A DNA stretch of 64,000 nt. Origin: Candidatus Dormibacteria bacterium. Lineage in GTDB: Bacteria > Chloroflexota > Dormibacteria > Aeolococcales > Bog-877. Position 1 is the first letter of the stretch. Each line of letters opens with the position of its first letter. Shown piece by piece: positions 15,380 through 23,718 of the stretch. The stretch covers positions 19,689-83,688 of the forward strand of contig JBEKRL010000002.1 in NCBI GenBank assembly GCA_049518775.1, in the 5' to 3' direction. The position numbers and the translations under genes were made by a program. The notes under the pieces are model-generated. The model saw only the letters and a list, made by a program, of their open reading frames with translations. It did not search any database and was not told the origin of the DNA.

Positions 15380-16390
15380 TCAGTAGACCGGGTGACACCA
15401 CTCCCGGTACTTCTCGATCTCCCCGCGGACCAGGCTGGAGTAGATCTCGTCGAGCCGGCGTGCGAACGGACCGACCGTCCCGTCGCCCACCGGCCGATGG
15501 TCGATCTCCACAACCGGGCAGACCTGGGCTGCGGTCGCGCAGAGGATCACCTCGTCGGCGATATAGAGCTCGGTGCGGTCGATCGAGCGCTCGACCAGCG
15601 GCAGCCCCAGCTCCTCGGTCCAGATCTGGATCAGGGTCGCCCTGGTGATCCCCTCGAGGATGTTGTCGGAGACCGGAGGGGTGATCAGGGCCCCCTTGCG
15701 GATGATGAAGAGGTTATCCGCCGAGCCCTCGCAGACATGGCCGTCCTGGCCCAGCAGGATGGCCTCGTCCACGCCGTTGTCGAAGGCCTCCGTCTTGGCC
15801 AGGGCGGAGTTGATGTAGACCCCGGTTACCTTGGCCCGGGCCGGCGCAGCGTTATCGTCGACCCGCCGCCAGCTGGACACCATGCAGCGCAGCCCCCGAG
15901 AGCGGTCGTGGTACTCCCCGAAAGGCTGGGCATAGATGAGGAATCCGTCCTCGAGGTCGTGGAGCCTGACCCCGATCTCCTCGGAGGCCTTGTACACCAA
16001 GGGCCGGATGTAGGTGTCGGTCCGGAAGCGATTGCGCCGGAGCAGGTCCACCGTGATCTCGGTCAGCTCATCGGCTGAGTGGGGCAGGGCCATCCGCAGG
16101 ATGGACGCGGACTGGCGCAGGCGCTGAAAGTGGTCTCGGGCCCGGAAGACGTAGAGCTGCTCTCGCGGGGCGCTCCAGAAGGCACGGATCCCCTCAAAAC
16201 AGCCGGTACCGTAGTGGAGGGCATGGGTCATCACCCCGATGTGGGCGTCGCGGTAGCGGCGCGGCTCGCCCTCGAAGAAGACCCAGGCCTCCTGCTGGTC
16301 GAAGGCTGGTCCCTGGCCAGCGGCGGAGGCCTCAGCCTTTGCAGCAGGCGGGGCCGGGGCTGATCCAACGGTCCGTTCGTGGGCAGCCAA
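15380..16390 (-). CDS. ilvE: branched-chain amino acid aminotransferase
   Basis: EAWVFFEGE…HALHYGTGCFEGIRAF…; the PLP-fold class IV motif (E193 etc.) is conserved. I chose the TTG start at 16390, 6 nt after AGGAGG; the track ORF extends to 16519 with a low-complexity N-terminus. Confidence 0.85.
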   Translation of the reverse strand: MAAHERTVGSAPAPPAAKAEASAAGQGPAFDQQEAWVFFEGEPRRYRDAHIGVMTHALHYGTGCFEGIRAFWSAPREQLYVFRARDHFQRLRQSASILRMALPHSADELTEITVDLLRRNRFRTDTYIRPLVYKASEEIGVRLHDLEDGFLIYAQPFGEYHDRSRGLRCMVSSWRRVDDNAAPARAKVTGVYINSALAKTEAFDNGVDEAILLGQDGHVCEGSADNLFIIRKGALITPPVSDNILEGITRATLIQIWTEELGLPLVERSIDRTELYIADEVILCATAAQVCPVVEIDHRPVGDGTVGPFARRLDEIYSSLVRGEIEKYREWCHPVY

Positions 16391-16509
16391 TGCAACCCTC
16401 CTGGAACTCTGGCGGACCACCTCCCAACGCAACCGGCGGCCAGTATACGCGCGCCCTTCGGGGCCGGCCCCTAGGGCCCGGATTCCCCGCCGGGCGCTGA
16501 CCGGGGCCG

Positions 16510-17820
16510 GTGATACCATCCGGCCAAGTCATGCGAACGCCACGGCTAGGTTCGGGCGTCACGCGCTGGTTGACTCCCGGTCTCCACGTCAAGCGCTGGC
16601 TCGGCGTGACCATCGTCGCGATCGTGGGGATCAGCCTGGGGATCAGCTACGCCCTGCGTGCCTTCTACCAGACCGCCTCCCTGCCCGCGTTCACCTACAA
16701 CCTCACCCTGCAGTTCTGGCCCCGCTGGGTCAGGGCCACGATCTTCGTGCTGCTCGGGCTAGCGCTCCTCGGCCTGGGCATGTACAAGCTCACCCGCTCC
16801 TTGCTCAGCCCGTTCGTCCCCGGCGGCGACAAGGCGCTGGTGGAGCGGCTCTACGACTTCCGCCGCCTCCAGAAGGGTCCGCGGATCGTGGCCGTGGGTG
16901 GGGGCACCGGGCTCTCCACCCTGCTGCGCGGGATCAAGCGTCACAGCGGCAACGTCACGGCCCTGGTCACGGTCGCCGACGACGGGGGCAGCTCGGGAAG
17001 GCTGAGATCCGAGTACCAGATCCCGCCCCCGGGTGACTTCCGTCAGTGCCTCACCGCCCTGGCCGACGTGGAGCCGCTCATGGCCGAACTCTTCCAGTAC
17101 CGCTTCCAGGAGGGGTCACTCAGCGGCCACTCCTTCGGGAACCTGTTCATCATGGCCATGACCAACATCACCGGCGACTTCGAGCACGCGCTGAGGGAGT
17201 CGGGTCGGGTGCTGGCGGTGCGGGGGCAGATCGTTCCCACCACCCTGGAGTCCGTCACCCTCTGCGCCATCGCCGGAAGTGAGGTGCTGGTGGGCGAGTC
17301 CAAGGTTCCCACCGGCAAGGCACCGATCCAGCGGGTCTTTCTGGTCCCCGAGCATCCCCGTCTCAACCCCGAAGCCCAGCTCGCGATCATGAACGCGGAG
17401 CTGGTCGTGATCGGCCCCGGCAGCCTCTACACCAGCCTGCTTCCCAACCTCCTTGTCGATGGGATGATCGAGGCCCTGCGCTCCACGCCCGCGATCAAGG
17501 TCTACGTCTGCAACGTGGCCACCCAGGCCGGCGAGACCAGCGGCTACTCGGTCTACGACCACGTCGAGGCGCTGGAGCGCTACGTGGGAAACGGCCTCTT
17601 CGACTACGTGGTCGCCAACAGCAACCTCAGCCTCCCACTCTCGCCCACCGCCCGGGAGGCCGGCGTGCACCGGGTCGCCTTCGACCGCCGCCAGGTGACC
17701 AGCAACGGCTCCCGGACCAAGTACGTCCTAGGCGACCTGGCCTCCCCCACGTTCACCACCCATCACGATCCGGACAAGCTGGCCCGCCTGCTCATGAAGC
17801 GGGTCTGGTCCAAGAGCTAG
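16510..17820 (+). CDS. YvcK/CofD-family gluconeogenesis-factor-like protein with an N-terminal ~100-aa 2-TM extension
   Basis: UPF0052 core (…IVAVGGGTGLSTLLRG…VTVADDGGSSG…); the N-terminus has two hydrophobic helices. Confidence 0.8.
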   Translation: MIPSGQVMRTPRLGSGVTRWLTPGLHVKRWLGVTIVAIVGISLGISYALRAFYQTASLPAFTYNLTLQFWPRWVRATIFVLLGLALLGLGMYKLTRSLLSPFVPGGDKALVERLYDFRRLQKGPRIVAVGGGTGLSTLLRGIKRHSGNVTALVTVADDGGSSGRLRSEYQIPPPGDFRQCLTALADVEPLMAELFQYRFQEGSLSGHSFGNLFIMAMTNITGDFEHALRESGRVLAVRGQIVPTTLESVTLCAIAGSEVLVGESKVPTGKAPIQRVFLVPEHPRLNPEAQLAIMNAELVVIGPGSLYTSLLPNLLVDGMIEALRSTPAIKVYVCNVATQAGETSGYSVYDHVEALERYVGNGLFDYVVANSNLSLPLSPTAREAGVHRVAFDRRQVTSNGSRTKYVLGDLASPTFTTHHDPDKLARLLMKRVWSKS

Positions 17821-17826
17821 TCGGCG

Positions 17827-18990
17827 CTAGCCCTTTCCCAGCACCTGGTCCGGGGCGAGAAGGTTCTGGGGCAGGGTGAGGGTACGGTGCTCAACCGCCT
17901 CCAGCGCCTCTTGGACCAGCTCCTCGAGCAAAGCTGGGAAGGGCACCCCGCTGGCCTCCCAGAGGTAGAAGGCCAGAGAGCCGGGGAGGGTGTTGACCTC
18001 GTTGACGTAGAGCTCGCCCGTCTCCGAGAGGAGGAAGTCGACCCGGGCCGACCCCGCACATCCGAGCGCGTCGAACGCCCGGACCGCCAGCCGCTGGACC
18101 TCCGCCCGGGTGGCCTCAGGGATCGCGGCCGGGAGCTCGCGCCGGGGGTCGCCGGAGCTGGCCTTGGCGCCGGCCCGCTTGCCTCCCGCTGACAGCGGCC
18201 CGGCCCGCTTGCCCTGGCCGGCGTACTTGTCCGCGTAGCTGAGAGGGCCGGTGCCCTTGACGGGCCGCTCCACCTCCGAGAAGCGGGGCTCGCGCAGCTT
18301 CACCGCGCAGTTCAGGTCCATCGCGCCCGGCACGGCCGGCTCCAGTACCAGTCCGGTGTCGTACTCCAGGGCCAGTTCCGCCGCCCGCGCCAGCTCGAGC
18401 TCGTCGCCAGCCAGTCCCACCCCCACGCTGGAACCGCCCCGGTTGGGCTTGACCACAACCGGGAAGCCGAGCTGCGCGGCCACCCGCCGCGCCTGCTCAG
18501 CATCACCCGCCGCCAGGGAGGGTACCGCGGGCAGTCCCGCCGCCCGCAGCACCTGCTTGGAGCGGAGCTTGTCCATGGCCAGCGCGGCCGCCAGGGTGCC
18601 GCTCCCCACCTGGGGCAACCGGGCCATGGCCGCCAGGCCGGCCAGGTTGCCGTCCTCGCCGAAGGTCCCGTGCAGGAGGGGGAAGAGCACCAGGTCGCCC
18701 AGCTCCCGGGGCCGGCCCAGGAGGGAGCCGCCTCCGACCAGGAGCTGGCCCTTGGCGAGGTCGAGGAGCACCGTCCCTCCCTCCTCCGGGAGCCGCTTTC
18801 GGAAGGTGGCCAGATCAGTGAAGCTGGGGTGGGTGAGCCAGCGTCCCTGCTTGGTGATGTAGATGGGGATGAGCCGGGCCCCCAGCTCGGCCAGCACCGG
18901 CATCGCCTGGCAGGCGGTGATGATGCTGATCTCGTGCTCCACCGAGCGGGAGCCGAAGACCGGAGCCACGGTCACCCCGGAGAGGCTCAT
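17827..18990 (-). CDS. ddl: D-alanine--D-alanine ligase
   Basis: Start at MSLSGVTVAPVFGSRSVEHEISI…; ATP-grasp motifs; ATGA overlap with the murF-like stop. Confidence 0.9.
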   Translation of the reverse strand: MSLSGVTVAPVFGSRSVEHEISIITACQAMPVLAELGARLIPIYITKQGRWLTHPSFTDLATFRKRLPEEGGTVLLDLAKGQLLVGGGSLLGRPRELGDLVLFPLLHGTFGEDGNLAGLAAMARLPQVGSGTLAAALAMDKLRSKQVLRAAGLPAVPSLAAGDAEQARRVAAQLGFPVVVKPNRGGSSVGVGLAGDELELARAAELALEYDTGLVLEPAVPGAMDLNCAVKLREPRFSEVERPVKGTGPLSYADKYAGQGKRAGPLSAGGKRAGAKASSGDPRRELPAAIPEATRAEVQRLAVRAFDALGCAGSARVDFLLSETGELYVNEVNTLPGSLAFYLWEASGVPFPALLEELVQEALEAVEHRTLTLPQNLLAPDQVLGKG

Positions 18991-20567
18991 CCCAGCTCCA
19001 GGAAGGAGTCGGGGAGGTCGTTCTCGAAGAGGACCACGCTGCCGGCCCCGGCCACCTCGGGAAGCCGCCTCTGGGCCTCGTCCAGGTCGGTCACGACGGT
19101 GAGCTGCTGGGCTGGGTAGCCCGCCTCGCGGAGCCCAGCCGCCACCGCCGCCGACTGCCTGGGGCCGACCAGGATCACGTGCGAGCACACCTCGGCGGCC
19201 CGCCTTCCCAGCTCGCGCATGCTCTGCTCCTGCAGTGGGCCCAGCTCCACGAACCCCGGGGTCACCAGCACCCGACGCTGGCCGGGCAGGACCGCCAGCA
19301 GCCGGAGCGCCTCGGCGGCCCCGTCGGGGTTCGAATTGTAGGCGTCGTCGATGATAGTGATGCCCCCGACCTGGCTCACCTCGAGCCGGTGCGGGGCCCC
19401 GGTCAGGCCGGCGGTCCGCTCCTGCAGCCGGGCAGCGGGTATCCCCAGCTCGGCCGCCACCGCCCAGGCGCAGAGCAGGTCACCCACGATCGGCTCGCCG
19501 TGGACCGGCACCACCAGACGCAGGTCCTCCCCCTCCGAGCCCCGGAGCCGGAAGCTGGAGCCCTCGGGGGCGACGCTCATCTCCTCGGCCCACCAGCGAT
19601 CTCCCGCCCTCCCCACCCAGACCGGCCTGGCCAGGAGCCCAGCGGTCAGGGCGGCGCGCTCTTCCACAGTGCTGGGAGCCACCGCGACCCCGTCCGGCGG
19701 AAGCGCCGAAAACAGCTCGGACTTGGCCTGGGCGATCCGCTGCCTGGTGCCGAAGCGCTCCAGGTGCATCACCCCCACCGCGGTGACGATGCCCATCTGG
19801 GGGTGGGTGAAGGAGCAGATCTCGGCGATCTCGCCGGGACGGTAGGCGCCCATCTCGACCACCGCGTAGCGATGCTCGGGGCGGAGCCCCTCGTTGATGG
19901 CCCGGCAGACCCCCAAGGTGGTGTTGAAGCTCTGAGGGGTGGCGAAGCAGGGATTCTCAGGGGAGTCCAGCAGCTGCTGGAGGAAGAGCTTGGCGGTGGT
20001 CTTCCCGTAGCTCCCGGTGATCCCGATCACCAGAGGTCCGAGATCCCGGATCCGGGACGCCGCCTCGGCCATGTAGCGGCGCCGCCGGCGGCGCAGTGAG
20101 GGCGTCATCAAGCCCTCGGCGAGGGTCAGTGCGGCCACCAGCACCAGGTCGATGAGCCCAATGGCGAGCGCGCCCGGCCAGCCGCTCCAGAGGGAGACGA
20201 AGAGCGCGGCCAGGGTGAGGAGGCCAGCCAGCACCGCGAGCCGCCGAGCCCTGCCGGTCCAGCGCAGCTCCCCCCGCTTGCCGAAGGGACGGTTGGTGAA
20301 GAACGGCAGCAGCGCCGCCAGCAGCAACGGCACCGCGGCCCCCTGCCGGCTCGGACCGAAGGCCGCCGCGGCCAGGGCGGCCCCCCCCAGGAGTAGGGCC
20401 AGCTGCCAGCGCCAGTTGGCCGAGACCCGGCGCCGGAAGGTCCGCAGCAGCCGGCTGGGCTGGTACTCGTCCAACTGGTACAGGTACAGCCAGCCTTCGA
20501 AGCGGGCCCGGCCGGAGGCGGCGGCGAGGATGGTCAGCGCCAGGGCCTGCCAGAGCGGGAGTGTCAC
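18987..20567 (-). CDS. murF: Mur ligase, MurF-like (UDP-MurNAc-tripeptide--D-Ala-D-Ala ligase) with an atypical N-terminal polytopic membrane segment
   Basis: P-loop GITGSYGKTT, C-domain DDAYNSNP, immediately upstream of ddl. The ~170 aa before the P-loop are 4-5 hydrophobic helices rather than the canonical MurF N-domain. A GTG start at ~20567 avoids overlap with the hydrolase; the track ORF runs to 20648. Confidence 0.75.
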   Translation of the reverse strand: MTLPLWQALALTILAAASGRARFEGWLYLYQLDEYQPSRLLRTFRRRVSANWRWQLALLLGGAALAAAAFGPSRQGAAVPLLLAALLPFFTNRPFGKRGELRWTGRARRLAVLAGLLTLAALFVSLWSGWPGALAIGLIDLVLVAALTLAEGLMTPSLRRRRRRYMAEAASRIRDLGPLVIGITGSYGKTTAKLFLQQLLDSPENPCFATPQSFNTTLGVCRAINEGLRPEHRYAVVEMGAYRPGEIAEICSFTHPQMGIVTAVGVMHLERFGTRQRIAQAKSELFSALPPDGVAVAPSTVEERAALTAGLLARPVWVGRAGDRWWAEEMSVAPEGSSFRLRGSEGEDLRLVVPVHGEPIVGDLLCAWAVAAELGIPAARLQERTAGLTGAPHRLEVSQVGGITIIDDAYNSNPDGAAEALRLLAVLPGQRRVLVTPGFVELGPLQEQSMRELGRRAAEVCSHVILVGPRQSAAVAAGLREAGYPAQQLTVVTDLDEAQRRLPEVAGAGSVVLFENDLPDSFLELG

Positions 20568-20571
20568 GGGA

Positions 20572-21381
20572 TCAGAGTGTGGCGTCGACGAAGGAGTCGA
20601 GCACTGCCGCGAACCGCCCCGGCTCGTCGACGAAGGGGAAATGTCCACTGGACTCGAACTCCACCAGCTCGGAGCTGGTGATCAGCTGGCGGAGCCTGAG
20701 CCCGTAGGGATCGAGGGGCAGCTCCTGGTCTCTGGCCCCCCAGACGATGAGAGTCGGTACCGAGATCCGGGCCGCCGTCCCGCTCAGGTCCTCCTGGACG
20801 GCGTGCACCAGGGTCGGTCGCAGGGCGCCGGCCGCCCGGTAGTCGGCCGAGCCCATTCGCTGGCGCAACCACTCGACAGCGGACTCAGCGGCCCGCCCGG
20901 GCAGCACCGCCTCGGCGCTGGCCCGGAGCGCCCGGAAGACCCGAACCCGCGCCCCCACGACACCCCGGTTGGGGAAGCGCACGCCCGAGGCGTCGCACAG
21001 GACCAGCCGGTCCACGGTGACCCCGGGCTCGCCGGCCAGCCGAATGGAGACGCTGCCACCGTAGGAGTGGCCGACAAGGCTGATCTGGCTCCAGCCCCGG
21101 AGGCGGACCATCTCCCGCACCAGGTCGGCATACCCGGAGGTGGTCCAGAGGGTCTCGCCCTGGGGGGACTGGCCGAACCCCGGGAGGTCGGGCGCGAGGA
21201 TCCGCCTGCGGGTGCGGCAGAGCCGCATCAGCCCGGTGAAGGTGGAGGCGCTGGCGCCCCAACCGTGGAGCAGCAGCACCGGAGGGTCCGCCCCCTCCCG
21301 TTCCAGCCAGGAGACAGGCTGCTCCCCGACCGCGGCACTGTGCCGGGTGGGCGCCACCGAGCCGGGCCACGCATTCGGCAT
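20572..21381 (-). CDS. alpha/beta-fold hydrolase
   Basis: HGWG…GHSYGG nucleophile elbow, C-terminal His; 269 aa. Confidence 0.8.
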   Translation of the reverse strand: MPNAWPGSVAPTRHSAAVGEQPVSWLEREGADPPVLLLHGWGASASTFTGLMRLCRTRRRILAPDLPGFGQSPQGETLWTTSGYADLVREMVRLRGWSQISLVGHSYGGSVSIRLAGEPGVTVDRLVLCDASGVRFPNRGVVGARVRVFRALRASAEAVLPGRAAESAVEWLRQRMGSADYRAAGALRPTLVHAVQEDLSGTAARISVPTLIVWGARDQELPLDPYGLRLRQLITSSELVEFESSGHFPFVDEPGRFAAVLDSFVDATL

Positions 21382-21443
21382 CGGCGCCCGAGTCTAAGCC
21401 ATGTCTAAGCAAGCCCCCGCGCCGGGGGTGGTCTGATCTGGCA

Positions 21444-22172
21444 ATGCCCCGACCTATAATCCCGCCAGCCATGCCCGAAGAGGTGACTGGCCGGCGCCCG
21501 GGCCTACCCCGGGTGCTGGTGGTCGACGACGAGCCGGCGATCACCGATTTCATCAGGCTCGGGCTGAGCCGTGAAGGCTTCGAGGTGGAGACCGCCGGCG
21601 ACGGCCGGGCCGCCCTGACCGTGGTCGACCGCTTCGCCCCCGACGTCGTCGTGCTGGACGTGATGATGCCCCGAATGGACGGCATCTCCCTCACCAAGGA
21701 GCTGGCCGGCGACCCTCGGCGAGGGCTGGTGATCCTCAGCGCCCGGGACGAGACCCGGGATCGCATCCGCGGCCTCGAGGTCGGCGCCGACGATTACCTC
21801 GGCAAGCCGTTCGAGTTCGAGGAGCTGCTGGCCCGGGTCCGGGCGGTCCTCCGCCGCCGCCAGCCTGAGCAGGCGGCGGTGCTTCGGGTGGGCACCCTGG
21901 AGCTGGACCGCAGCACCCGCCGGGTCCTCAGCGAGGGGTCTGAGATCGACCTCTCCACCCGCGAGTTCGACCTGCTTGCCTACTTCATGGAGCACCGTGG
22001 CGAGGTGCTGGCCCGCGACCGGATCCTCAACGCGGTCTGGGGAGTCTCCTTCTACGGGGATGAGAACAACCTCGAGGTCTACGTCCGCTACCTGCGTGTC
22101 AAGCTGGGCGATCCCGAGCGTCGCCTGATCCAGACCGTCCGCGGGGTGGGCTATCGCCTTGCCGACGACTGA
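21444..22172 (+). CDS. OmpR/PhoB-family response regulator
   Basis: Receiver domain plus winged-helix domain (…VRGVGYRL). Confidence 0.9.
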   Translation: MPRPIIPPAMPEEVTGRRPGLPRVLVVDDEPAITDFIRLGLSREGFEVETAGDGRAALTVVDRFAPDVVVLDVMMPRMDGISLTKELAGDPRRGLVILSARDETRDRIRGLEVGADDYLGKPFEFEELLARVRAVLRRRQPEQAAVLRVGTLELDRSTRRVLSEGSEIDLSTREFDLLAYFMEHRGEVLARDRILNAVWGVSFYGDENNLEVYVRYLRVKLGDPERRLIQTVRGVGYRLADD

Positions 22173-23718
22173 CGCGGCCGTTCCCTGGTACCGCAGCCTC
22201 AGGTGGCGGCTCACGCTCTCCTTCGTCGGGCTGCTCGCGGTCCTGCTGGCCGTGGCCGGCGCGGTGGAGGTCGGCCTGCTCAGCCAGGCGGTCCTCAACA
22301 GCCGGGCCCAGACCCTCCGGGCCACCTTCTCCGAGGGGCGGGCGGTGGTTCTCGCCGAGGAGCGGGCCCGGGTGCGTCGGGGCCTTCCGGCCCTTCCTCG
22401 AGCGACCGTCGGAGGCGATCTGGCCAGGCTGCTGGCCGAGGCCGGGGTCAAGGCAGCGGTGTACTCCACGGAGCTCGAGCTGGTGGCCTCGGCCGGCCCC
22501 GGAGCCGGCTCCAACTCCCCGGTGCAGGCCGGGGTGACCGTGCCCGCCCCCGCACAGGGCCAGCTTCTGGCCGCAGCCCAGGGCGGCACCGGCTCCGGGC
22601 CGACCCTGGTGGGAAGCGGCGCCGGCAGCCAGCTGGTGATGCTCTTCCCGCTCACCGGCGCTCTGGGGCGTCACCTGGGGGTGGTGGAGTTGGCCGAGTC
22701 CGCCGGGCCGGTGCGGACCGAGCTCGGCACGGCCACCGCCGTGGTTGCCGCCGGGAGCGCCGCGGTGCTGGTGGTGGCGCTGCTGATCGGGCTCTGGATC
22801 ACCTCCAGGGGATTGGGGCCGCTGCGCAGGCTGACCCAGGCCGCTGCGGGGCTGGGCCGGGGTGACCTCTCCCAGCGCAGTGGGCTCAGCCCCCGGGGGG
22901 ACGAGGTCGGAATGCTGGCCGCCGTCTTCGACGAGATGGCCGACAGCGTCGAGCGGACGGTGCGGGTCCGCCAGGAGGCGGAGCGCCACATGCGCCAGTT
23001 CATCGCCGACGCGTCCCATGAGCTGCGCACCCCGCTCACGGCCATCAAGGGGTACCTGGAGGTGCTCCAGCGAGGAGGCGGGGCCAGTTTGGAGGAGGTG
23101 CGAGGTGCCCTGCCGGTGATGTCCCAGGAGGCGGACCGGATGCACCGCCTGGTGCTGGACCTCCTGACCCTGGCCCGTGCCGACGACCGGCGCTCCCTGC
23201 AGCCCCGGCCGGTCGAGCTGGGGGCCTTCCTCGGCCAGTTCTTGGAGGGTCGGCAGGGGAGCTCCGAGATCTCCTCGGCCTCGCAGGGCCAGCTCTCCGC
23301 GATGGTCGACCCGGACGCCCTGTCCACCATCGTCAGCAACCTCCACCGCAACGCCGAGCGCCACGGCCAGGGCTCGGCTATCTCCTGGGGCACGGTGGAC
23401 GAGGGCGCGATGGTGGGCCTGCGCTGCACCGACCAGGGGCCGGGGATCCCTGCCCAAGACCTCCCCCACGTCTTCGAGCGCTTCTACCGCGCCAGCGGCT
23501 CCCGCTCCCGCCAGGATGGCGGCAGCGGGCTGGGTCTGGCCATCGTTCAGGCCCTGGCCGAGGCCCAAGGGGGGCGCGTCTACGTCGACTCCAAGGTGGG
23601 CCACGGCGCCAGCTTCACCGTCCTCCTCCCGGCCGTGCGAGCCTCGGGCTGGACCCCGCCCCGGACGTCAGGCGGCGGCCCGGCCGGCTACGAGGGGTCT
23701 GGCCGGGCCGGCCCTTGA
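22159..23718 (+). CDS. sensor histidine kinase (2 TM, HAMP, HisKA, HATPase_c)
   Basis: H-box HELRTPLTAIKGY; N, G1, G2 boxes; overlaps the RR gene by 14 nt. Confidence 0.9.
   Translation: MPTTDAAVPWYRSLRWRLTLSFVGLLAVLLAVAGAVEVGLLSQAVLNSRAQTLRATFSEGRAVVLAEERARVRRGLPALPRATVGGDLARLLAEAGVKAAVYSTELELVASAGPGAGSNSPVQAGVTVPAPAQGQLLAAAQGGTGSGPTLVGSGAGSQLVMLFPLTGALGRHLGVVELAESAGPVRTELGTATAVVAAGSAAVLVVALLIGLWITSRGLGPLRRLTQAAAGLGRGDLSQRSGLSPRGDEVGMLAAVFDEMADSVERTVRVRQEAERHMRQFIADASHELRTPLTAIKGYLEVLQRGGGASLEEVRGALPVMSQEADRMHRLVLDLLTLARADDRRSLQPRPVELGAFLGQFLEGRQGSSEISSASQGQLSAMVDPDALSTIVSNLHRNAERHGQGSAISWGTVDEGAMVGLRCTDQGPGIPAQDLPHVFERFYRASGSRSRQDGGSGLGLAIVQALAEAQGGRVYVDSKVGHGASFTVLLPAVRASGWTPPRTSGGGPAGYEGSGRAGP

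Follow-up and report, generated by a model that had tools for sequence, protein, structure and literature searches.

The stretch analyzed here, 64,000 nucleotides (nt) of contig JBEKRL010000002.1 from a Candidatus Dormibacteria bacterium (the window), carries a compact three-gene cassette on its minus strand. In order of transcription, the genes encode an alpha/beta-hydrolase, a MurF-type ligase with a predicted N-terminal membrane domain (designated TM-MurF; TM, transmembrane), and a D-Ala-D-Ala ligase (Ddl). A gap of 4 nt lies between the hydrolase and ligase genes, and the ligase and ddl genes overlap in the tetranucleotide ATGA. The features of the cassette are as follows, with residue numbers in amino acids (aa).

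20572..21381, minus strand: alpha/beta-hydrolase of 269 aa, first gene of the cassette (Pfam Abhydrolase_6/Abhydrolase_1)
18987..20567, minus strand: TM-MurF, MurF-type ligase with N-terminal membrane domain (GTG start, 526 aa)
20052..20567, minus strand: N-terminal membrane domain of TM-MurF, aa 1–172 (from hydropathy, AlphaFold2 helices, charge pattern, and family profile)
20463..20477, minus strand: invariant motif QLDEY, aa 31–35, in loop 1 after TM1 (family consensus LH[LM]LQL[DE]xYxxxR)
20241..20258, minus strand: invariant motif TGRARR, aa 104–109, in loop 3 just ahead of TM4 (family consensus KxLVxTxRAxRL)
19455..20036, minus strand: Mur ligase central (ATP-binding) domain, aa 178–371 (PF08245 at aa 183–371, E 4e-26)
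19998–20024, minus strand: P-loop GITGSYGKT, aa 182–190, read in the sequence
19026..19391, minus strand: Mur ligase C-terminal domain, aa 393–514 (PF02875, E 6e-16)
19326–19349, minus strand: MurF-type motif DDAYNSNP, aa 407–414, aligning to DDtYNaNP of Acinetobacter baumannii MurF
19008–19028, minus strand: family-specific C-terminal motif LFENDLPD (FENDLPD, aa 514–520), in family-invariant columns
17827..18990, minus strand: cassette Ddl of 387 aa, DdlA-like, of a divergent subfamily (Pfam Dala_Dala_lig_N/C)

The open reading frame (ORF) of TM-MurF was found at 18987–20567, where an initial annotation of this DNA had described it; it is on the minus strand and encodes 526 aa. Its start codon, as read at the junction, sits 4 nt past the hydrolase stop codon, and an alternative GTG upstream at 20648 would run into the hydrolase gene. 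Approximately 40 Candidatus Dormibacteria orthologs are exactly 526 aa long and align with it end to end at 55–99% identity, and the orthologs at loci L001 and L008 carry ATG at the codon that matches GTG-20567. Dormibacteria TM-MurFs as a whole form ~60 clusters at 90% identity, nearly all of 526 aa, and distant homologs in other phyla (38–47% identity, 490–580 aa) were aligned through the N-terminal region too. The ratio of nonsynonymous to synonymous substitutions (dN/dS) against three Dormibacteria orthologs was 0.32–0.63 for the N-terminal codons, compared with 0.21–0.40 for the ligase part, and the GC content at the third positions of the former (GC3) was 0.94. AlphaFold2 modeled the whole protein (65-sequence alignment) with a predicted local distance difference test score (pLDDT) of 93 and a predicted template modeling score (pTM) of 0.87, and the N-terminal domain alone with a pLDDT of 95.3. 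In members from genomes of 32–38% GC (Sporosalibacterium, Clostridiaceae, and Bdellovibrionales), the segments are just as hydrophobic, indicating that the TM pattern does not reflect the Ala/Leu bias of high-GC DNA. The N-terminal region of TM-MurF is a genuine part of the protein under purifying selection.

The initial annotation had also considered that two genes might be fused in frame or that the ORF might be over-extended, with translation starting at an internal Met, and had proposed to check whether orthologs keep the extension. The extension is kept in 65 sequences from many phyla, with invariant residues. This conservation, the purifying selection, the GC3 value, the confident fold, and the 1,783 protein clusters that carry the domain (see below) refute a fusion, an over-extension, and an internal start alike. 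The residue that had been named as the internal start, Met-186, does not exist; the internal Met residues are aa 154 and aa 166.

Five strongly hydrophobic segments were recognized in the N-terminal domain on the Kyte-Doolittle scale, at approximately aa 5–19, 52–69, 75–90, 107–127, and 133–154, and were modeled as helical by AlphaFold2, whose helices span aa 5–18, 20–32, 37–50, 52–69, 75–90, 105–127, 130–137, and 139–176. The predicted layout is TM1 (~5–19), a TM2–TM3 hairpin (52–69 and 75–90), and a TM4–TM5 hairpin (107–127 and 133–154), followed by a basic linker helix that leads into the first strand of the ligase. Six consecutive Arg residues lie between the hydrophobic segments and the P-loop. 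For this junction, the initial annotation had quoted the string RRRRRRYMAEAASRIRDLGPLVIGITGSYGKTT, which was found in the TM-MurF sequence, and had given a distance of ~20 residues from the last hydrophobic helix to the P-loop; by our count, the distance is ~27 residues. Q31, Y35, T104, R106, and A107 do not vary among 65 sequences of the family, in which R39, L101, R109, and P156 are conserved in at least 90%. A third motif, LLxPVQxxxNxx[FY], is located past TM5 in most members.

Loop 1, loop 3, and the linker have family net charges of +3.3 to +3.8; values of ~0 were obtained for the N-terminus, loop 2, and loop 4. This positive-inside pattern predicts a topology with the N-terminus outside and with both invariant motifs and the ligase in the cytoplasm, where the ligase must be placed because it uses ATP. 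In the Nitrospirota TM-MurF (locus L043), the TM2–TM3 hairpin is gone, while TM1, both motifs, TM4, and TM5 are kept (three TM helices). The topology is preserved in this hairpin-less member, which defines TM1, the two motifs, TM4, and TM5 as the core of the domain.

No consistent Pfam family, including the CapC-type family, was obtained for the N-terminal domain in a search with 22 members at E values up to 10. Scattered weak matches to UbiA (3 of 22 members) and YwiC (2 of 22) were judged to be noise arising from TM composition. With the domain as a query, Foldseek returned nothing under E = 2 from the PDB; the top match had an E value of 2.3 and a TM-score of ~0.25. A profile of the domain was then used to search 1.84 billion representative proteins, clustered at 50% identity, and detected 1,783 clusters with E values up to 1e-3, 798 of them with E values up to 1e-10. 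In the best 150 of the 1,783 clusters, the domain was always N-terminal, in proteins of ~520–580 aa or in shorter fragments from metagenome contigs. One sequence (P0132), in which the domain seemed to lie at aa 130–278, was a frameshifted fragment and not another architecture. The N-terminal domain is a membrane domain with neither a Pfam family nor a relative among solved folds.

In the Pfam search, TM-MurF matched only Mur_ligase_M (aa 183–371) and Mur_ligase_C (aa 393–514), and the N-domain family PF01225 was not matched. Among NCBIfam models, the murF model TIGR01143 scored highest (209.9 bits), with an alignment that spans profile positions 65–403 of 418; murD reached 75 bits, and murC, murE, and mpl at most ~46 bits. 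Neither MurT nor PgsB/CapB models were among the NCBIfam and Pfam matches. The closest solved sequences were all MurF (4ziy, 1gg4, 4cvk, and 3zl8), aligned only from TM-MurF residue ~163–180 onward, and canonical murF genes on plasmids (72,556 plasmid records) matched only from aa ~170–180 onward. With the PDB as the target, the top Foldseek matches of the model were MurF as well (4qf5, E 2e-27, 364 aligned columns). The coverage of TIGR01143 and the late start of the PDB and plasmid MurF alignments, past aa ~163, indicate that the canonical UDP-binding N-domain (UDP, uridine diphosphate) is absent. Pfam, TIGR01143 coverage, PDB alignments, Foldseek, and AlphaFold2 therefore agree with the earlier description of a MurF-like ligase in which a polytopic membrane segment of ~170 aa takes the place of the N-domain.

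The central-domain residues TGSxGKT, EMG, HLE, and K282/E284 are invariant across the TM-MurF family, and the C-terminal DDAYNSNP that the initial annotation had pointed out is located at aa 407–414. Canonical MurF (TIGR01143, COG0770; 1gg4, 4qf5, 4cvm, and 3zl8) and TM-MurF share the catalytic-domain fold and the P-loop, HLExFG, and DDxYNxNP motifs; the two are 28–37% identical in the catalytic part, and TM-MurFs of different phyla are 33–43% identical among themselves. Like canonical MurF, TM-MurF is paired with Ddl, and in 22 related loci it stands between murE and mraY. Unlike canonical MurF, it is without the ~80-aa UDP-binding N-domain and has a 172-aa membrane domain, is co-encoded with an alpha/beta-hydrolase, and ends in the LFENDLPD motif. 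By these sequence comparisons, TM-MurF is closer to MurF than to MurC, MurD, MurE, Mpl, MurT, CapB, FPGS, or CphA. Database labels for the family read "MurF" or "Mur ligase family protein."

Two members of the Mur ligase superfamily invite comparison. MurT of the MurT-GatD complex is an N-domain-less Mur-ligase homolog that amidates lipid II, a membrane-bound substrate, together with an obligate partner enzyme, and it is the precedent for the view that the acceptor of TM-MurF may be lipid-linked. However, the partner of TM-MurF is an alpha/beta-hydrolase and not the GatD glutaminase, TM-MurF is predicted to be polytopic whereas MurT is soluble, and the catalytic domains of TM-MurF are of the MurF type. 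The MurT-specific domain had no Pfam or NCBIfam match in TM-MurF, and the adjoining genes encode the hydrolase and Ddl. PgsB/CapB of the PgsBCA poly-gamma-glutamate synthetase is a membrane-associated amide ligase of the same superfamily that works with small polytopic membrane partners. TM-MurF resembles it in its predicted membrane association, but is adjoined by Ddl and the hydrolase, not by PgsC and PgsA, at the 82 loci compared below. Judging from domains and neighbors, TM-MurF is neither MurT nor PgsB. A MurE-MurF fusion (8f5d, among the PDB matches of TM-MurF) and a MurC-Ddl fusion (NF011171) illustrate that the MurF and Ddl steps tolerate re-packaging of consecutive enzymes. These fusions are soluble canonical enzymes that keep their N-domains, whereas TM-MurF has exchanged the N-domain for a membrane domain and its partners are separate genes.

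The overlap of the ligase gene with the downstream ddl, which had been noted in the initial annotation, was confirmed as ATGA, with the TM-MurF stop codon at 18989–18987 and the ddl ATG at 18990–18988. The listed start of the ddl ORF at 19188 was rejected as a 67-codon over-extension. The cassette Ddl is of the ATP-grasp fold, and its top PDB match was DdlA (3r5f, E 3e-49). With the catalytic set of Escherichia coli DdlB (E15, K215-Y216, R255, D257, E270, and N272) as the reference, the catalytic residues E17, K140, K180, K254-Y255, R315, D317, E330, and N332 are conserved; among 70 cassette Ddls, conservation is 97% or higher for E17, K254-Y255, R315, D317, E330, and N332. The omega-loop K-Y, which is typical of D-Ala-D-Ala ligases rather than Van-type ligases, is kept, and the protein scores higher on Ddl models than on Van-type models. 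Right after this K-Y lies a Gly/Lys-rich insertion of 27 residues, AGQGKRAGPLSAGGKRAGAKASSGDPR (18145–18225, minus strand). The insertion is 11–47 residues long over the family and is followed by a GMxGxxR-IPA motif that is conserved in most members outside Dormibacteria.

The hydrolase has neither a signal peptide nor a TM segment. Its catalytic set, HGWG (oxyanion), GHS106xG, D218, and H247, is 97–100% conserved in 72 sequences, and a cap motif, S178-x-D180-Y181...R188, is conserved and polar or charged. As judged from its sequence, the hydrolase is catalytically intact and cytoplasmic. No specific subfamily model passed its cut-off, and no solved relative accounts for the protein; among the nearest ones are enzymes of the lipase/esterase type and 6i8w, listed without a specific name as an alpha/beta-fold hydrolase, which we take to be the membrane phospholipase PlaF.

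A distribution scan with one genome per GTDB species located relatives of TM-MurF at no fewer than 571 species loci, of which 80 were retained. The phyla and classes among the retained loci are Dormibacteria, Poribacteria, Acidobacteria, Actinomycetota (Solirubrobacterales), Nitrospirota, NC10, Bdellovibrionota, Binatia, and genomes labeled Gammaproteobacteria. Chloroflexota carriers beyond Dormibacteria belong to Anaerolineae, Chloroflexia, Thermoflexus, and Limnocylindrales, and Bacillota carriers to Clostridia and Tissierellia, including the isolate Sporosalibacterium faouarense. Synteny was analyzed in a set of 82 loci by tblastn with the window neighbors and by all-against-all ORF clustering. 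A homolog of the hydrolase lies directly upstream of the ligase in 75 loci, and Ddl lies directly downstream, or upstream in some Acidobacteria, in 72. Beyond the three cassette genes, clustering of the 82 loci yielded only shadow ORFs and synteny confined to particular lineages. Across more than 10 phyla, 72–75 of 82 loci keep the cassette, and TM-MurF represents a large, widespread family and not a single oddity. The initial annotation had noticed neither this breadth nor the obligate hydrolase partner and the distinct subfamily of the Ddl. Within Dormibacteria it appears to be near-universal and uniform in length. No full-length TM-MurF was present in the 72,556 plasmid records. An apparent hydrolase-ligase fusion in NC10 (ORFs of 818–819 aa at loci L061 and L039; 7119–9575 in L061) was rejected, as its first 260 codons are Arg/Gly/Pro-rich junk in the wrong frame; in L061, the hydrolase is a separate gene in a different frame from TM-MurF.

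On an NC10 chromosome (OY970067.1, locus L061), the cassette is embedded in a dcw cluster with the order rsmH, PBP/FtsI, murE, hydrolase, TM-MurF, ddl, mraY, murD, (ftsW), and murG. Annotation gene by gene gave the same order in Poribacteria (locus L009). When the dcw proteins of L009 were used as tblastn queries, the cassette was placed between murE and mraY in 22 of the 82 loci, namely 17 Poribacteria or Poribacteria-like metagenome-assembled genomes (MAGs), 2 NC10, 1 Nitrospirota, and 2 low-GC genomes (L062 and L064, one labeled Gammaproteobacteria GD-1). A canonical murF, which is detectable at the threshold used, was not found within ±8 kb at any of the 82 loci. Extra Mur ligases near the cassette were rejected as canonical MurF; the one at L003 is MurC/Mpl-like and the one at L061 is MurD. 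Such in-situ replacement of murF, seen in several phyla, is an argument that the MurF step is performed by this family. The proposal in the initial annotation that this ligase is the genomic MurF is supported indirectly, by the loci of relatives, which fill the murF slot of the 22 dcw clusters and have no canonical murF in their vicinity.

Two loci differ in their surroundings. In the Nitrospirota dcw cluster (L043, 7794–12748), a DD-carboxypeptidase-like gene lies between mraY and murD. In a Bdellovibrionota MAG (L003, 365–10004), the cassette stands beside a glutamate racemase gene and the MurC/Mpl-like ligase gene, amid glycosyltransferase genes; that ligase is below the cut-offs of both models.

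Three further genes lie close to the cassette in the window.

16510..17820, plus strand: YvcK/CofD-related UDP-GlcNAc-binding protein (PF01933 at aa 126–402), convergent with ddl
21444–22172, plus strand: OmpR-type response regulator ORF, divergent from the cassette
22159–23718, plus strand: histidine kinase ORF, divergent from the cassette

The TM-MurF family most likely performs the MurF step, and the sequence evidence makes the window protein probably the D-Ala-D-Ala-adding enzyme of this Dormibacteria organism. In the proposed mechanism, an integral-membrane variant of MurF would add D-Ala-D-Ala to the MurNAc-tripeptide precursor of peptidoglycan. The MurF-type central and C-terminal catalytic domains would work on the cytoplasmic side, and the conserved membrane domain would replace the soluble UDP-binding N-domain, with the QLDxY..R and TxRAxR motifs at the cytoplasmic face beside the ligase. 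The membrane domain may take over binding of the substrate head group, position the enzyme beside MraY, or both. Translational coupling to the DdlA-like ligase, which would supply the dipeptide, and to the hydrolase would make the cassette a self-contained three-gene module. The acceptor could be either UDP-MurNAc-tripeptide or a lipid-linked tripeptide. The invariant motifs, which are rich in Arg and lie at the cytoplasmic face of the membrane, are candidates for binding a pyrophosphate head group. Given also the lipid II substrate of MurT, an acceptor linked to lipid, or a product passed directly to MraY, is a serious possibility. The ~60 Dormibacteria clusters of near-constant length, the lack of a copy in the plasmid records, and the YvcK-type neighbor are consistent with a housekeeping role.

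Several observations weigh against this assignment. Neither in the window, whose 64 kb contain no dcw gene and no second Mur ligase, nor in 60 of the 82 loci is the cassette part of a dcw cluster. The TIGR01143 score of TM-MurF is under the curated cut-off of 288.6 bits, a shortfall that is consistent with the missing N-domain. The cassette Ddl likewise reaches 219 bits with TIGR01205, under the cut-off of 245.65. In Solirubrobacterales, a second, canonical ddl follows the cassette ddl in tandem (L029, 9230–11591; also L047, L050, L052, and L070), scoring 298 bits with NF002378 (cut-off, 243), which indicates that some carriers have another Ddl besides that of the cassette. Homologs of the response regulator adjoin the cassette in 13 loci of Dormibacteria, other Chloroflexota, and Acidobacteria, including L027, L035, L041, L045, L059, L082, and L083. 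The adjacent two-component system, by which the cassette is possibly controlled, would also fit an inducible accessory module. Lastly, we know of no MurF pathway, or step from MurE to MraY, that requires a serine hydrolase, even though the conservation of the hydrolase equals that of the ligase.

An extended form of the proposal would move the last Mur step onto the membrane altogether. In this form, the five-TM domain would bind the head group of undecaprenyl-pyrophosphate, D-Ala-D-Ala would be added to lipid-linked MurNAc-tripeptide after MraY or the product would be passed to MraY within a complex, and the hydrolase would provide a previously unknown obligatory step on the way to the pentapeptide precursor, such as editing, trimming, or release. 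We regard this combination as possible though doubtful.

It is unlikely that the cassette is an accessory paralog beside a canonical murF and ddl in this genome, serving an alternative or regulated precursor route (under envelope stress or antibiotic, or with a different dipeptide) under two-component control, as VanRS controls vanHAX. Such a role would suit the fact that this cassette and most others are not part of a dcw cluster, the divergent response regulator and kinase that adjoin the cassette in Dormibacteria (with response-regulator homologs in other Chloroflexota and Acidobacteria), the canonical ddl kept beside the cassette ddl in Solirubrobacterales, and the separate subfamily of the cassette Ddl with its omega-loop insertion. 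However, murF has been replaced in situ between murE and mraY in 22 loci of at least four lineages, the Ddl keeps K-Y and its other catalytic residues and scores better on Ddl than on Van-type models, the cassette is absent from the 72,556 plasmid records, and TM-MurF appears near-universal and of uniform length within Dormibacteria.

A role outside peptidoglycan is less probable still, indeed very unlikely. A MurF-derived ligase would then join the Ddl-made dipeptide to a membrane-embedded carboxylate of a lipid or polymer, and the lipase-like hydrolase would prepare or release the substrate. The loss of the UDP-binding domain and the gain of a membrane domain are in line with such a role, as are the lipase/esterase-type enzymes among the nearest solved relatives of the hydrolase; Mur-ligase relatives without the N-domain (MurT, PgsB, FPGS, and the M-domain of CphA) use non-UDP substrates. 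Against it stand the position that the cassette takes between murE and mraY in clusters without another murF, the strong retention of MurF-specific motifs, and the hydrolase cap, whose conserved S-x-D-Y...R is polar and charged and not a purely hydrophobic lid. An annotation artefact, in which the hydrophobic stretch either is not translated or makes up a small membrane protein of its own, with the ligase beginning at an internal Met, is effectively refuted: high-GC DNA does yield long spurious ORFs, such as the ddl ORF to 19188 and the 818-aa pseudo-fusion in L061, but the full-length architecture also occurs in 32–38% GC genomes, the N-terminal residues are invariant and under purifying selection (GC3 0.94), the chain folds confidently as one (pTM 0.87), 1,783 clusters carry the domain, and 4 nt separate the start codon from the stop codon of the gene upstream.

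In textbook peptidoglycan synthesis, MurA to MurF are soluble cytoplasmic enzymes, and the membrane steps begin with MraY. The family described here, with at least 571 species, more than 10 phyla, and ~1,800 clusters, would be a type of MurF that is predicted to be an integral membrane protein. Neither a membrane-integral MurF nor its N-terminal domain nor the hydrolase-MurF-Ddl cassette turned up in the literature searched, which included work on Chloroflexota reclassification, on the Lipocone, and on pseudomurein and Mur ligases; its coverage was incomplete, so that an earlier description elsewhere is possible. If TM-MurF is a housekeeping enzyme, precursor synthesis would be organized at the membrane in many little-studied lineages, among them Dormibacteria, other Chloroflexota, Poribacteria, NC10, and some Clostridia, and a new enzymatic step may exist. 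The same condition would call for a fresh look at inhibitors directed at MurF and Ddl and at annotation models with cut-offs that these proteins do not reach. In addition, the family is a natural experiment on the purpose of the MurF N-domain.

Among the neighbors of the cassette, the arrangement of the response regulator and kinase is the same at the Dormibacteria locus L001. The YvcK/CofD-related protein scored 329.7 bits with TIGR01826, above the cut-off of 196, with a match that begins at aa 126; ahead of it, two hydrophobic helices lie in an N-terminal extension of ~125 aa. Another cell-envelope protein that is normally soluble, of the YvcK type, thus appears to be membrane-anchored in the Dormibacteria lineage. 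The YvcK-type gene also adjoins the cassette at the Dormibacteria loci L001, L004, L005, L006, and L008. Two plus-strand ORFs that run antisense across the cassette, 19179–20099 (306 aa) and 20152–21408 (418 aa), were rejected as artefacts; long wrong-frame or over-extended ORFs are typical of DNA of ~70% GC. Farther along, a class-IV aminotransferase gene (15380–16519, minus strand) encodes a branched-chain amino-acid transaminase according to NF005146 (364 bits; cut-off, 279), not a D-amino-acid transaminase, and is thus probably unrelated to D-Ala supply. The N-terminus of its listed ORF looks over-extended by ~70 aa.

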